A DNA stretch of 64,000 nt from Candidatus Bathyarchaeota archaeon (GTDB lineage: Archaea; Thermoproteota; Bathyarchaeia; Bathyarchaeales; Bathycorpusculaceae): NCBI GenBank assembly GCA_963715865.1, contig OY970280.1, positions 1,408,001 through 1,472,000 of the forward strand. Direction: 5' to 3'. This document shows, in pieces, positions 53,597 to 62,565 of this stretch. The notes beneath the pieces are model-generated. The model did not search any database. It was given only the letters and a program-made list of their open reading frames with translations, and was not told the origin of the DNA. Each line of letters starts with the position of its first letter. The stretch's first letter is position 1. A program made the translations under genes and the position numbers.

Positions 53597-53974
53597 ATGA
53601 CTACTTCGCAAAAAGAAACAACCTACAAGAAACTAACTCCCGAAGAGGAACGCGTCATTGTTCGCAAAAGCACAGAAATGCCCTTCACCGGCAAATACTA
53701 CGCGTTTTGGGAAAAAGGCATCTACGTATGCAAACGCTGCAGAGCACCACTTTACCGCTCAGAAAACAAGTTTGAAGCAAACTGCGGGTGGCCAAGCTTT
53801 GATGAGGAAATTCCAGGCGCAGTTAAACGATTACCTGACCCTGATGGAGTGCGAACTGAAATTCAATGCGCAAACTGCGGCGCCCACTTAGGGCACGTTT
53901 TCATCGGTGAACAATTCACGGAAAAAAACACTCGGCACTGCGTTAACTCAATATCAATGGATTTTCTGAAATAA
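53597..53974 (+). CDS. msrB: Peptide methionine-R-sulfoxide reductase (C-terminus altered by integration)
   Basis: TEMPFTG, CKRC, CGWPSF, CANCGAHLGHVF, RHCVNS. Confidence 0.95.
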   Translation: MTTSQKETTYKKLTPEEERVIVRKSTEMPFTGKYYAFWEKGIYVCKRCRAPLYRSENKFEANCGWPSFDEEIPGAVKRLPDPDGVRTEIQCANCGAHLGHVFIGEQFTEKNTRHCVNSISMDFLK

Positions 53975-54045: not shown

Positions 54046-55188
54046 ATGAAAAATGAATTTAAAAAAGACAAGGAGTTAGAAAAATGGATTGGACAGCCAA
54101 CAGAGGAATGGCTGAAGAGTTACAGCAAAAAAGCTGTGATCGGGATAGAAAAACGGAACATAGCTTATTATTGTAAATGGATGCAGAAAACAGACGCGAC
54201 GTTAGTGCAGGAATACAAGGACGCAGCGGACAAGGATGAATGGTCGAAAAAGACAGGGGAAAAGCTGATTGAATGGCTTAATCATCTAAAAGCGGAGGGC
54301 TACAGCGTTAACACTGTTCGCGCGTACGTTGCCAGCGTGCGGGCATTCTTCACCAATCAATGTCGATCAGTAAAGATTCAACGCGGTAAAGTTCCGAAGC
54401 AGCAGGTCGCCACAGGCGAACACGAGTTCAGCGTGTTAGAGTTGAGAAAAATGTTCCATTACGCGGACACGCGCGGAAAAGCGATATTGTCAACGGCTGT
54501 TAGTTTAGGTTGGGCAGCAGATGATTTCTTGAATTTCACACGCGTGGAGATGGAAGGTTACGTTAACAAGGCATTAGCGGAGAAAGAGCAGTTTATCGGC
54601 TTCACGCATGTAAGAGGCAAAACAGGCGCAGTCAGCAGAAGTCACTTGACGCCAGAAGCGATTGAAAGTTTAAAGGCTTACCTGGACATCACGGAAAAAA
54701 GCGCAAAGTTTCTCTGGGCGAACGGATCACTCGAAGATCATCTCACAGGCGACACGATCAACAACATCTTACGCGATCTAACGGAGAAAGCGGGAATTGT
54801 AACGATCGGAACAGTTCACTTTCATCTGATACGCAAGTTCACGATGTCCGCGCTGTCAAGTGCAGGGATTGGAGATTGGGACGTTAAGTTTATGATCGGA
54901 AAAGAAGTGCCTGCTGACATACAAACGTATCTCATCAATCGCAAAGAAGTCTTAATGGAAGAGTTTCAGAAAGCTTATCCTAAAATGTCGCTGACAGGCT
55001 ACGCAAACCGCAACCACGACCGAGTAAGCGAGTTAGAAGAGGAAAACAAGAAACTCAAGGAAAACAACGCTTTAATCTGGGCGACGTTAGCGCAGATAGT
55101 CGGAAACAACCCGAAGATGGCTGAAATTCGGAAGGTTATCGAGAGGCAAATTAAAGCGCCAACACCTAAACCTGAAAGAGAGGAATAA
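54046..55188 (+). CDS. Tyrosine recombinase/integrase
   Basis: SAM-like N-domain (YSVNTVRAYVASVRAFF), RGKTG Lys, HLIR, MIGK, TY; GGAGGT RBS. Confidence 0.85.
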   Translation: MKNEFKKDKELEKWIGQPTEEWLKSYSKKAVIGIEKRNIAYYCKWMQKTDATLVQEYKDAADKDEWSKKTGEKLIEWLNHLKAEGYSVNTVRAYVASVRAFFTNQCRSVKIQRGKVPKQQVATGEHEFSVLELRKMFHYADTRGKAILSTAVSLGWAADDFLNFTRVEMEGYVNKALAEKEQFIGFTHVRGKTGAVSRSHLTPEAIESLKAYLDITEKSAKFLWANGSLEDHLTGDTINNILRDLTEKAGIVTIGTVHFHLIRKFTMSALSSAGIGDWDVKFMIGKEVPADIQTYLINRKEVLMEEFQKAYPKMSLTGYANRNHDRVSELEEENKKLKENNALIWATLAQIVGNNPKMAEIRKVIERQIKAPTPKPEREE

Positions 55189-56113: not shown

Positions 56114-57418
56114 TTATCTGTGAAATTCTGCAATGCTGACAATCCATTTACCGTGTTCCGCACGCTTACGCTTAACGTAGCCGTTGTCTTCTAAAGTCGG
56201 CATTATTCGACCGACAGTTGAAGGGTCAACATCCAACGCTTCTGCTATCATTTCCTGATCAGTTTCCCCTCTCTCCTTGAGAAACGACAACATTTTAACC
56301 GCTACGCGCTTTCGACTTTCGCTCTTGAACATCTCTGCGAATTCTAACTCTGCATCCTGCATAAGAACAGCGTCAGTGATCACGGCTTTAACGTCTTCCA
56401 CCGTTACTGTTTCCTTGCCTCTTCGCACCATGTTTAAAACGATCATGTTAACGTAGCGCATGAAGCGACGGAAAATGCCCCTGCTATATTGTGCAACCAA
56501 CGTTAAAGACTCAGCAGCGAACGGATCAAGAGAACCTGCACCGAGCGCTTTCCTGTAAACCTCCAGCATCTCTTCAGGCTTCAAAGGCGTTAACTCCATG
56601 AGCGGGTACATTTTCAGTAAAAAGAACTGCTGCCGCGCTTTAACCAGCTCTTTCTGCAAGAAAACTATAACGTTTGCCTTGTAACCGAAGGCTCGCAGAT
56701 CAGTCCAAAACTCACTAAGCTGGGTTAAATCACGGTTGATTAAACGGACGTCCTTGCGTCCGTAGTCGGGTGTATCGATCAAAAAGGCTTTGCGGTAGTT
56801 CATACGGAACGAATCCTTCATCTCTTCCTTCCAAAACTTGTAAACGCCTGTGTCCCATTTTGGGATTGAAACGTTAAAATCAGGTCTTGTTTCTGTTGTT
56901 GTTATTGTTGAATTCCCGTCTTTCTCAACTTTCTCAACTGTTTTCGGTTCCTGCTTATCATAGAAGCGTCTTAATGCGCTGCTAAAGGCGAACTTTAACG
57001 CTGTTTTTCCCTGCCCCGAGTAGCCCATCACGCCGACAAGCAAGCCTTCAGGAACAGTCTTCAGCAAGGAGAGAAGCTCCTTAGCCTGCCCTGTCCAATA
57101 ATAGCCGTAAACGCCGTCTTCCGCGCGGTTTTTCGATGACCATTCTAATGCAAGCCTCACCTGCTTCTGCACGGCTGTTTCCGCTTTGACTGACCTTCTG
57201 ATAAATCTTCCAACAAATTTTGTCGCTTCCATTCGACCGTTCTTGCATGGAACAGGTTTGAAACAGAGAAGCTTAATGACGCCTCTTTTGCTTGGCACAA
57301 GCGCGTATTGTTCAAGGTAGTCTTTTAAAGGCATCAGAATCCTGCCTTTGTACATGCAAGGAGAGCAATATTTAAGGTAAGAATCGAAAGGGACTTCTAT
57401 AACGCTTTCCTTGCTCAT
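56114..57418 (-). CDS. P-loop AAA+-like ATPase with C-terminal wHTH (candidate replication protein)
   Basis: GYSGQGKT Walker A, AFLID Walker B-like, SRGIFRR lid, QEMIAEALDVDPSTVGRIM..LE..GYV. Confidence 0.75.
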   Translation of the reverse strand: MSKESVIEVPFDSYLKYCSPCMYKGRILMPLKDYLEQYALVPSKRGVIKLLCFKPVPCKNGRMEATKFVGRFIRRSVKAETAVQKQVRLALEWSSKNRAEDGVYGYYWTGQAKELLSLLKTVPEGLLVGVMGYSGQGKTALKFAFSSALRRFYDKQEPKTVEKVEKDGNSTITTTETRPDFNVSIPKWDTGVYKFWKEEMKDSFRMNYRKAFLIDTPDYGRKDVRLINRDLTQLSEFWTDLRAFGYKANVIVFLQKELVKARQQFFLLKMYPLMELTPLKPEEMLEVYRKALGAGSLDPFAAESLTLVAQYSRGIFRRFMRYVNMIVLNMVRRGKETVTVEDVKAVITDAVLMQDAELEFAEMFKSESRKRVAVKMLSFLKERGETDQEMIAEALDVDPSTVGRIMPTLEDNGYVKRKRAEHGKWIVSIAEFHR

Positions 57419-57726
57419 GTCGCTTGTCCCTTCACCGTTACGATCATGCTCGGCAACGTTTTTAACGCTTCCAGCTTCTGTACGTATTCTTTTGCAGCCG
57501 TCGTTAGCAACGCATTAACTAACTGCTCAACGCTTACGCCTGCAAGCTCTGCTAACCGCGCGTACGGCTTGTATAAGGAAGAGGGCAGATCAAGGACAGG
57601 CACAAGCGGAACAAGAATAGCGTCAGGATTTGAACAAACGCAAGCAGCAGCGTCGGCTGGAGGCTTACGCTGGTATTCCTTACCGCACCTGGGACATCGC
57701 CCGAACATTATTATTTTAACCTTCAT
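57415..57726 (-). CDS. Zn finger + ribbon-helix-helix-like protein
   Basis: CPRCG...CVC, then ARLAELAGVSVEQLVNALL; AGGAG RBS; overlaps the ATPase start. Confidence 0.65.
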   Translation of the reverse strand: MKVKIIMFGRCPRCGKEYQRKPPADAAACVCSNPDAILVPLVPVLDLPSSLYKPYARLAELAGVSVEQLVNALLTTAAKEYVQKLEALKTLPSMIVTVKGQAT

Positions 57727-58319: not shown

Positions 58320-58577
58320 TCAACGATCGGCATTTCCTCCGTTGCTGTCGGTTGCGGTGCTGTAACGGTTTCCTTTTTCTAATCCAACTTTAGGCTCTTC
58401 CTCTCGTAAATCGACGGTTTCTCCTCGCCTCTTTCTAATTTCAGGAGGAGCCATCTTCCAAGTATTCTCAACCATTTTGGTCAAAACTGCCGTTTCATCT
58501 TTGTTTGTTGTGCATAACATTTTGAATTTCTGCCATGTTTCCGCTGATACATCAACTTTTATTTCCAATTCATTCAC
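58320..58577 (-). CDS. Hypothetical protein (possibly frameshifted into an acidic A/T/E/P-rich tail ending at 58190)
   Basis: GGAGGTG RBS; the +1 frame encodes KETVTAPQPTATEE...TATEETPTA. Confidence 0.55.
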   Translation of the reverse strand: MNELEIKVDVSAETWQKFKMLCTTNKDETAVLTKMVENTWKMAPPEIRKRRGETVDLREEEPKVGLEKGNRYSTATDSNGGNADR

Positions 58578-58583
58578 CTCCGT

Positions 58584-59372
58584 TTAACTCAAAAGAAGTC
58601 CTGTCCTACCGTGCAGTCGATCGTTTACGTCCTGCACTTTCGCCGTGATTTTTTCGTAAAGCGTCGGTGGCAGACCGCTGACTGCCATCTGCTTCGCTAT
58701 TTTTTCTATTGCAGTATAGAAGCGTGCGTATCTCTCCCCTTTTACCTGTTGAATCCAAGCGGTATGCTCCTGCAAGAACGTGTTAAATTGATCAGTTAGA
58801 TACGGGTCGATGCTTAACGCTAACAGTTCCGCACGAGTTTTCTCCTCGAACTCCACGAGTTTCTTAGACTGCTCCTCATCGATCTTCGCTAAATTGCTTT
58901 CCACGGTTCCGTCTAATTCCTCTAACGCGCGAGCTATGATTTCTCGTGGCGGAGACGGAAGTGTTTTAAGATAAAAGTAGATTTCGCCAGGCATTTCGCT
59001 TAGGGTTTTAGCTACCGCGTTTATGTCCGCGCTAACATTCTTACCGCAATCCACGCAAGAGCCAGTAAGGTGAAGTTGAGCGTCCGATGTCCCGCCTCGC
59101 TTTAGAAACGGATCAGCTTCGCTTTTGCGCCGTAGTATTTCCAGCTTGTACAGGGCAGTGAACAAGTCGATCCTTTTATCGCTGATTTCTTCCCAGACCT
59201 TGTTCCGTTCGCTGTTAAGCTGCGACTGCGCTTCAATCGTGGCGAGGATTTCCTCTGTGGCTTTCGGGCTTTGATTGAAAAGTCGTTCAACCGTGTTTTT
59301 TTCACTGCCACACCAACCGCATTTAGGCTTGGCAATTACGGTAACGCTGACGTGCGGATAATTATCGAACAT
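58584..59372 (-). CDS. Hypothetical protein with split CxxC/CxxC and coiled-coil segments
   Basis: CGWC and CVDC; helical composition; coupled to the upstream protease gene. Confidence 0.6.
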   Translation of the reverse strand: MFDNYPHVSVTVIAKPKCGWCGSEKNTVERLFNQSPKATEEILATIEAQSQLNSERNKVWEEISDKRIDLFTALYKLEILRRKSEADPFLKRGGTSDAQLHLTGSCVDCGKNVSADINAVAKTLSEMPGEIYFYLKTLPSPPREIIARALEELDGTVESNLAKIDEEQSKKLVEFEEKTRAELLALSIDPYLTDQFNTFLQEHTAWIQQVKGERYARFYTAIEKIAKQMAVSGLPPTLYEKITAKVQDVNDRLHGRTGLLLS

Positions 59373-59979
59373 GTCTGTTTTTCCTCCAATGTTGAAGTGG
59401 CGTTAGCGGTACAGGTTTTTCCTTTTCATCAGAGGTCGTAACTTGTTCTAATCCTATGCCTTCGTTTATCGGAACCGCTTGCTGTCTGATGCCCTCCATT
59501 AAACCTTCCCATAAATGAACTGTTGCCTGCGGGTTACCAGCATCCATGTTTTGCAGAAAAGAGAATTCATTAAAGTCAAAGGCGTACGGGATTAACTGTC
59601 CTTCCTCCCCTACGATCACGCCTCCACCTGGCTTTGTCCAATCGACGCCTACCGAAACGTGCTTGATGATGCCTTTCCTAATCTTGTCGGCAATGTCGGC
59701 TGTCACGTACCCCTCATAAATCAACTCCCCATCCTTCCAAACGCTGACAGTAATTCGGTTGCCTTCTGGAAGCGGATATGAGTGGTCAATCGTTACACGT
59801 GCCTTAGTCAACGTCGGCGCTGCACGTTCCAGATAAGGCTCGACGTACTGCCGTACTTTAGCCCATTCATTAGGATGGAAGGTTTTGCACGGATGAATTG
59901 CGGAACCTGGGATTTTGAAAAGTTTTCCATCGACGCTTTCAAGAAGCGTTAAGCCATCGCTGTAGAATTCGAGTTTCAT
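59362..59979 (-). CDS. HK97-type prohead (head maturation) protease-like protein
   Basis: G.AIHP..T, AA..L....V.IDH (His), I.KG.I.HVSVG (Ser), F.FNEFSFL...AG.P.A pattern of caudovirus prohead proteases. Confidence 0.72.
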   Translation of the reverse strand: MKLEFYSDGLTLLESVDGKLFKIPGSAIHPCKTFHPNEWAKVRQYVEPYLERAAPTLTKARVTIDHSYPLPEGNRITVSVWKDGELIYEGYVTADIADKIRKGIIKHVSVGVDWTKPGGGVIVGEEGQLIPYAFDFNEFSFLQNMDAGNPQATVHLWEGLMEGIRQQAVPINEGIGLEQVTTSDEKEKPVPLTPLQHWRKNRHVR

Positions 59980-60119
59980 GTCCTTTCCTCCTTTGCTGCC
60001 TGTTCAATTACGTACTCCAAACAATCGCTTTGATTTTTAAAACCGTGCTTCTTCTGAATGGCGCAGAACTTTTCAAAGGCAGGGTCACTTACAGGAATTG
60101 AAAGATTTTTCAAATTCAA
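59976..60119 (-). CDS. CopG/RHH-like DNA-binding protein, 47 aa
   Basis: MNLKNLSIPVSDPAFEKFCAIQKKHGFKNQSDCLEYVIEQAAKEERT; ATGA overlap with the protease start. Confidence 0.65.
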   Translation of the reverse strand: MNLKNLSIPVSDPAFEKFCAIQKKHGFKNQSDCLEYVIEQAAKEERT

Positions 60120-60202
60120 CACGACGCGATTTGTATTTATTGTATGAACAAACATTTATATAACAAAATCGGTTATTATTTAACGCGAAATACACAAAAA
60201 TT

Positions 60203-62385: not shown

Positions 62386-62565
62386 AAACGCTCGCGCGTT
62401 TTAATGTCTCTTTTTTCTTTTGATTCAGTTTTCTCCGTTATTTGAATTGTATAATCCGAAATTAATTCGGAATATCAATGGATTTTATCCCTGACAAAAA
62501 AGAATAAGCACCCCAGCAATCCTCATGTAAGCGTGAAATAATAAAAAGACTATAGGGCTTAAGCT

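Follow-up and report, generated by a model that had tools for sequence, protein, structure and literature searches.

The satellites of tailed phages encode homologues of the assembly genes of their helpers (bioRxiv 10.1101/2025.08.03.668216), and the archaeal satellites described so far are those of the spindle-shaped viruses only (bioRxiv 10.1101/2025.02.15.638363). Among the latter, pSSVx, pSSVi, and the SRCEs have a backbone of plasmid type to which one or two genes of virus morphogenesis are added (bioRxiv 10.1101/2025.02.15.638363). Here, we analyze an 8.5-kb integrative element in the genome of Candidatus Bathyarchaeota archaeon (assembly GCA_963715865.1) that carries the gene of a putative head-maturation protease of the tailed-virus type. 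The element lies within a window of 64,000 nucleotides (contig OY970280.1, positions 1,408,001 to 1,472,000 of the forward strand), which is the whole stretch of DNA that was analyzed; the positions given below are those of the window unless the genome is named.

The element resembles the satellites of tailed phages (SaPI with CpmA/B, P4 with Sid, PLE with TcaP, and cf-PICI) in its small size, its integrase, its attachment (att) sites, and its own replication or control genes, and in the association of an incomplete head module with a homologue of a virus assembly gene. Those satellites, in contrast, employ homologues of scaffold or capsid proteins, or else a complete set of head genes, whereas our element resides in an archaeon and has no packaging gene recognized by Pfam, PHROGs, or NCBIfam. 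With pSSVx, pSSVi, and the SRCEs it has in common the character of a small archaeal element that mixes a backbone with a few virus morphogenesis genes. These, however, are parasites of spindle-shaped viruses that encode an AAA+ ATPase and/or a helical capsid protein, whereas the window element carries a tailed-virus protease.

The protease itself can be compared with HK97 gp4 and the Peptidase_S78 (U35) family, with which it shares the predicted fold class, a histidine and a serine (His66 and Ser109, aligned with H65 and S114 of gp4), and the order of an E-x-S ... P-[AG]-[ND] block. It is of similar length (205 amino acids [aa], against 225 aa for gp4), and in both proteins a short C-terminal tail follows the catalytic domain. 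Unlike S78, the family to which the window protein belongs has an N-terminal AIHPxKTxHPxEW block that contains two more near-invariant histidines, and an Asp where S78 has Asn or Tyr; and the window gene, unlike that of gp4, adjoins neither portal nor capsid genes. Among solved structures, the best matches of its model are T4 gp21 (5JBL) and the herpesvirus assemblins (varicella-zoster virus [VZV], 1VZV). The long members of the family have the protease, scaffold, and C-terminal tail layout of the herpesvirus UL26-type fusion, whereas the window protein is without the scaffold part. What emerges is a large family of assemblin-fold proteases (116 clusters) that four annotation libraries have missed and that includes unusual fusions to a second, ClpP-type protease.

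Fold and Classification of the Protease

The protease gene is a single open reading frame (ORF), with its ATG at 59979 and its stop at 59362:

59362..59979, minus strand: 205-aa protease ORF, a short form without scaffold domain (assigned from the fold model and the family alignment)

Its product is unmatched in Pfam (S78 included), PHROGs, NCBIfam, and PADLOC. The hidden Markov model (HMM) of Pfam Peptidase_S78 (PF04586) found nothing in it at E <= 0.1, and phmmer and profile searches of the PDB sequences returned nothing meaningful. The structural comparisons pointed to a single fold. An AlphaFold model, for which an alignment of 112 family sequences served as input, had a predicted local distance difference test score (pLDDT) of 86.8, with residues 20-160 mostly above 95. 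In a Foldseek search of the PDB, the best match of this model was T4 gp21 (5JBL), followed by the herpesvirus proteases; in BFVD there were 187 matches at E <= 0.001, the best of them annotated as prohead proteases (E 7e-9 to 1e-6), with haloarchaeal and other archaeal virus entries included. VIA-align gave a Z of 10.0 to the VZV protease (1VZV) and of 9.3 to T4 gp21 (121 residues aligned, 20% identity), and the first 37 ranks were all assemblin-type proteases, the unrelated MCE-domain proteins starting at Z 6.

The model thus argues strongly that the ORF encodes a serine protease of the assemblin/HK97 prohead-protease fold, of viral origin, and the predicted fold class is that of MEROPS clan SH (S78, S77, S21, S80). 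A sequence-only reading of this DNA had named the ORF a prohead protease and had proposed AlphaFold and Foldseek as the check on that name, which the fold has now borne out. Nonetheless, the protease is outside Pfam S78 in the strict sense: the alignment of its family against that of S78 by hhalign was not significant (probability 1-2%), and it belongs to a separate family that is missing from the current libraries.

Catalytic Residues

The IDH motif (His66) and the VSVG motif (Ser109) are both present, and these two residues are the most conserved positions of the 112-sequence alignment (His66 in 111 and Ser109 in 109 of its members). In profile alignments, all of low probability, His66 pairs with His65 of HK97 gp4, and Ser109 with both Ser114 of HK97 and Ser140 of T4 gp21; these pairings are consistent with one another and with the fold. 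The E-x-S ... P-G-D block of the family likewise pairs with the E-x-S ... P-A-N block of S78.

There are three candidates for the third residue of the triad: position 149, which is Asp in 108 of the 112 members and Asn in the window copy; His29 (107/112); and His35 (106/112). The third catalytic residue of the herpesvirus proteases is a histidine. The triad of T4 gp21 is His/Ser/Asp (PMC5694885). In S78, the position aligned with 149, in an alignment of low confidence, is usually Asn or Tyr. The claim that the motifs match the HK97 type and look intact therefore holds in part, His66 and Ser109 being kept and the near-invariant Asp149 being replaced by Asn.

A close relative of the window protein, found in a Logan/ENA assembly and here called its sibling, shares 203 of the 205 residues (99% identity). 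Residue 24, a position that is variable across the family, is Pro in the window protein and Ser in its sibling; the other difference is at residue 149 (Asn in the window protein, Asp in the sibling).

The Protease Family and Its Genomic Context

An exhaustive phmmer search, with clustering at 50% identity, yielded 116 cluster representatives of the protease family. Gene context was surveyed at 40 loci of relatives with 28-41% identity, drawn from IMG/VR, JGI metagenomes, and GTDB genomes, the scans of which gave no closer ones; the neighboring ORFs were clustered and HMMs were built from the clusters. The counts that follow are those of these 40 loci, among which there is no member of the 16-row clade to which the window protein belongs (see below). 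The gene order is nearly always a divergent portal, the protease, a gene of ~140 aa, and the major capsid gene, often with a small Zn-ribbon gene next. The capsid gene, identified as such by Pfam Phage_capsid_4 and by a PHROG major head protein, was found in all 15 loci with at least 2 kb of downstream flank, and the portal gene in 19 of the 20 with at least 1.5 kb of upstream flank. At least one head gene was present in 36 of the 40 loci, the remaining four having very short flanks.

Most of the survey proteins are 260-690 aa long; in them, the protease domain is followed by a long stretch of low complexity or coiled coil and then by a conserved C-terminal LP..W.GP motif. The family is thus the head-maturation protease of uncultivated tailed viruses, in most cases joined to a coiled-coil scaffold, and one group of such viruses, at least some of them in archaeal genomes, appears to use it as the standard head protease. 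This agrees with the expectation, voiced in the sequence-only reading, that such proteases sit between portal and capsid; in the neighborhood survey that it suggested, the only loci without any head gene were the four with very short flanks.

The His and Ser are invariant in all 53 long members. In 13 of these a ClpP-type head protease domain comes after the assemblin-fold domain, so that two protease folds are combined in one head protein; the His and Ser persist in these fusions also. DUF6582 was matched in six of the 53, and Pfam S78, weakly (E 6.7e-4), in one.

The domain arrangement of such fusions can be seen in two IMG/VR loci (L003:9728-11560 and L002:9581-11644, both on the plus strand), where the assemblin-fold domain (approximately residues 92-246) lies upstream of the ClpP-type domain and a scaffold-like tail. 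Extra domains were also observed among the members P0044, P0010, P0017, P0021, and P0014, one of which has a ChaB-like N-terminal stretch and several a '...GW(T/N)..KI..WL.DNPQY' block.

The protease-domain tree places the window protein within a clade of 16 rows (Shimodaira-Hasegawa-like approximate likelihood ratio test [SH-aLRT] 94), fifteen of which are 190-326 aa long and one 487 aa. The window protease has neither the scaffold domain nor the LP..W.GP motif that characterize the long forms and ends instead in a basic tail (last residues ...LTPLQHWRKNRHVR), in which a conserved basic helix is predicted at residues 194-204. The tail motif, LT..E.WR.R, recurs in the short clade and in a few other short members. 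Its presence in proteins of ~30-80% identity suggests that it is under selection.

The Integrative Element

An exact 16-bp direct repeat, its copies 8,521 bp apart, bounds an element with a tyrosine recombinase:

53950..53965, no strand: left att core AATATCAATGGATTTT, within msrB (53597-53974) at its 3' end; 16-bp direct repeat
54046..55188, plus strand: tyrosine recombinase (integrase); PF00589 E 8.4e-7 and phrog_1
56114..57418, minus strand: 434-aa P-loop/AAA-like protein with a C-terminal winged helix (MarR/Csa3-like); library matches
57415..57726, minus strand: 103-aa Zn-ribbon protein with an N-terminal CPxCG...C.C domain; viral cluster HMM
58320..58577, minus strand: 85-aa ORF with a ribbon-helix-helix (RHH)-like N-terminus and an acidic/basic tail; from the ORF sequence
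58584..59372, minus strand: 262-aa protein with two CxxC pairs and long helical stretches; from the ORF sequence
59976..60155, minus strand: 59-aa ORF, an RHH-looking regulator; from its sequence pattern only
62471..62486, no strand: right att core, the same 16-mer; 16-bp direct repeat

The target gene msrB was identified by NF004036 (E 6.9e-62), and the XerA-like NCBIfam match of the integrase falls below the curated cut-off. The protease is the sole head-morphogenesis gene on this att-bounded unit: the HMMs of the portal, the 140-aa protein, and the capsid had no match in its six reading frames (best E 0.09-0.6), and Pfam and PHROGs recognized in it no structural protein of a known virus type. 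What had been called a stand-alone protease without a capsid module is precisely that. The genes downstream of it had also been described as something other than a capsid, and the 262-aa and 85-aa ORFs indeed show no capsid similarity, either by hhalign or with the six-frame HMMs.

The protease ORF shares 4 nt at its start with the stop of the upstream 59-aa ORF, and 11 nt at its end with the start of the 262-aa ORF. Because of these overlaps with both neighbors, we regard the protease as one gene of a compact minus-strand operon, which continues past it with small ORFs, the 103-aa Zn-ribbon protein, and the 434-aa P-loop/winged-helix protein. A GGAGG lies ~8 nt ahead of the protease ATG and would constitute a strong ribosome-binding site.

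The 434-aa protein is likely the replication or control protein of the element; its winged helix-turn-helix (wHTH) resembles the HTH domains of Csa3/CasR. The 103-aa ORF is matched, over its N-terminal domain only, by the HMM of the Zn-ribbon cluster that follows the capsid in the viral loci (E 1.4e-6). Its pattern, G.CP.CG...PAD...C.C, is like that of the proteins after the capsid gene in at least six viral loci, and its C-terminal half differs. Together with the protease, this match means that the element and the viruses have two genes in common.

The 262-aa protein has no Pfam or PHROG match and no usable match in the ESM Atlas, and homologues of it occur in only one other cluster. Compared by hhalign with the capsid profile (A4) and with the profile of the long protease-scaffold proteins (A2), it gave a probability of 0.1% in both cases, and on present evidence we reject it as a candidate capsid or scaffold. 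The 59-aa ORF, which has a TTATATAA box ahead of it, is without a match in Pfam or PHROGs, and the 85-aa ORF without one in Pfam, PHROGs, or PADLOC. Also present in the element are small membrane ORFs and the gene of a secreted 158-aa protein. Apart from the wHTH resemblance of the 434-aa protein, the PADLOC defence models matched neither the protease nor its neighbors.

Head Modules in the Same Genome

One contig of 2.35 Mb makes up the genome and includes a full-length archaeal 16S gene. Two head modules broadly like those of the viral loci are present in it, and both have a divergent protease of their own (genome positions, with the locus coordinates in brackets):

~1,706,600-1,714,250 (L037:16600-19224, L038:1346-4252): head module 1, with large terminase, intact portal, protease, scaffold-like protein, and capsid
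~590,300-594,100 (L052:8318-12076): head module 2, degraded-looking, with split portal, protease-like protein, 149-aa protein, and capsid

Module 1 encodes an S78-like protease of 384 aa, a scaffold-like protein of ~167 aa, and a capsid protein of 313 aa, and there are glycosyltransferases downstream of it. In module 2, the portal ORFs measure 267 and ~208 aa, the protease-like protein 359 aa, and the short capsid protein 258 aa, in addition to the 149-aa protein. In the proteases of these modules the DH and VSV motifs are retained, and there is an S78-like E-L-S-I-V..P-A-Y block. No DNA is common to the element and the head-module regions. The resident modules could be targets of the element or its helpers.

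A Sibling Element and the Distribution of Its Genes

Proteins 99% identical to the protease and to the 262-aa ORF are found together on one separate contig, that of the sibling. Its 8,565 bp are close to the 8,521 bp of the att-to-att unit, which fits a free circular form of the element, or else an assembly break at the att sites. When contigs shared by homologues of the protease, the 262-aa protein, and the AAA/wHTH protein were sought by their length, there were none apart from this one. The 434-aa AAA/wHTH protein has 13 homologue clusters, all of them on contigs of 2.8-10.8 kb, and these small contigs suggest a family of small elements. A tblastn search of the records of isolated phages and plasmids gave no match, either to this protein or to close relatives of the protease.

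Proposed Role of the Protease

Our tentative reading, to which we assign somewhat less than an even chance, is that the protease acts on the procapsids of a tailed virus that resides in, or infects, the same cell, in a satellite-type use or as interference. We are led to it by analogy, because satellites carry homologues of helper assembly genes and because the host of the element contains related head modules. In such a scheme, the protease would meet the procapsids of a tailed virus replicating in the same cell and would process the scaffold or capsid proteins of that virus; the outcome would be either that the element exploits the capsids in the manner of a satellite or that virus assembly is disturbed. 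The catalytic activity of the protease, its target, and the benefit to the element are what we infer here.

Several observations favor the idea of a satellite: the related head modules, the near-identical element on a contig of its own, and the Zn-ribbon that is common to the element and the viruses. The element has, moreover, the integrase, the att sites, and the insertion at the 3' end of a gene (msrB), as well as the incomplete virion module accompanied by a homologue of a helper assembly gene (the protease, perhaps also the Zn-ribbon gene). If the reading is true, it would point to a new way to exploit or block capsid assembly, by means of a head-maturation protease alone, and if confirmed, it would add a new variant to the satellite theme. 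The presence of related head modules in the same genome would make this a testable system. A more specific version strikes us as doubtful: archaeal head-tailed viruses would have in this element their first satellite, and its scaffold-less protease would enter or attack the procapsids of the helper, whose maturation it would retime or redirect. Such a hijack or interference through a maturation protease would be undescribed for any satellite.

Several results weigh against an action on procapsids. The window copy is the sole member with Asn at position 149 among the 112 sequences, and should Asp149 supply the acidic residue of the triad, the window protein may be a much weaker enzyme. Neither a small terminase nor any other packaging gene was recognized in the element through Pfam, PHROGs, or NCBIfam. 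We know of no satellite that carries solely a protease. As for possible partners, the proteases of the head modules are only ~24% identical to the family profile over ~95 residues, no tail genes were recognized beside module 1, and the portal of module 2 is split in two ORFs, so that the resident modules fall short of demonstrating a live helper. Finally, close relatives of the protease and the 434-aa protein were not found in ~400 sampled genomes of the phylum (a search of 400 with the 434-aa protein returned its own genome only), nor in IMG/VR, where the latter was sought both as a single sequence and as an alignment.

The alternative that survives best, although we think it rather unlikely, is that the protease was captured from a virus and now processes the element's own products, for example the translationally coupled 262-aa Zn/coiled-coil protein or others from the operon; the element would then rank as a plasmid-like integrative element, or as a small virus of another type, that has no dealings with the capsids of tailed viruses. 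One tight minus-strand operon does hold the protease, the regulators, and the 262-aa and AAA/wHTH proteins, the family of the backbone protein occurs on contigs of at most 10.8 kb, and the secreted 158-aa protein and the small membrane ORFs would be at home in such an element. But the 262-aa partner is known from one other cluster as opposed to ~16 for the short protease clade, so that the two do not form a fixed pair. Moreover, every relative of known context sits in a head module, and no structural protein of a known virus type was recognized in the element by Pfam or PHROGs.

It is unlikely, in our judgment, that we are dealing with a passenger gene or with a remnant in decay, a piece of a viral head module gained by recombination and now neutral or losing its function. 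The main argument for this is again Asn149, which is peculiar to the window copy and is Asp in its 99% identical sibling, and to it can be added the lack of the scaffold domain and of the LP..W.GP motif and the visible degradation of one of the resident head modules. The state of the gene speaks otherwise: the frame is intact, the putative ribosome-binding site is good, the neighbors are coupled, and just 2 of the 205 residues differ from the sibling. The short clade as a whole keeps the His, the Ser, and the basic tail down to ~30% identity, and since S78 usually has Asn or Tyr at the position that the low-confidence alignment equates with 149, the Asn may be tolerated.

That the protein is a non-catalytic decoy or assembly factor, which binds capsid or scaffold through its protease fold and basic tail without cutting, is improbable: the change from Asp149 to Asn, the conserved C-terminal helix predicted at residues 194-204, and the ClpP-type head protease that could do the cutting in 13 of the 53 long relatives all accord with it, but almost every member, the ClpP fusions included, retains His66 and Ser109, which is the pattern expected from catalysis.

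Other Observations in the Genome

Apart from a small ORF and a paralogue of the integrase, nothing of the element, whether DNA or protein, recurs elsewhere in the genome. The paralogue, at genome positions 997,492-998,358, is 33% identical over 297 aa and may be the sign of a further integrated element. CRISPR arrays were sought across the genome and none was found; the only regular repeat consists of ~12 tandem copies of a 36-nt unit (CCACTTGGCATCGACAGCATCGCGCTCAGGCTT-like) at 1,685,130-1,685,570 and is probably coding.

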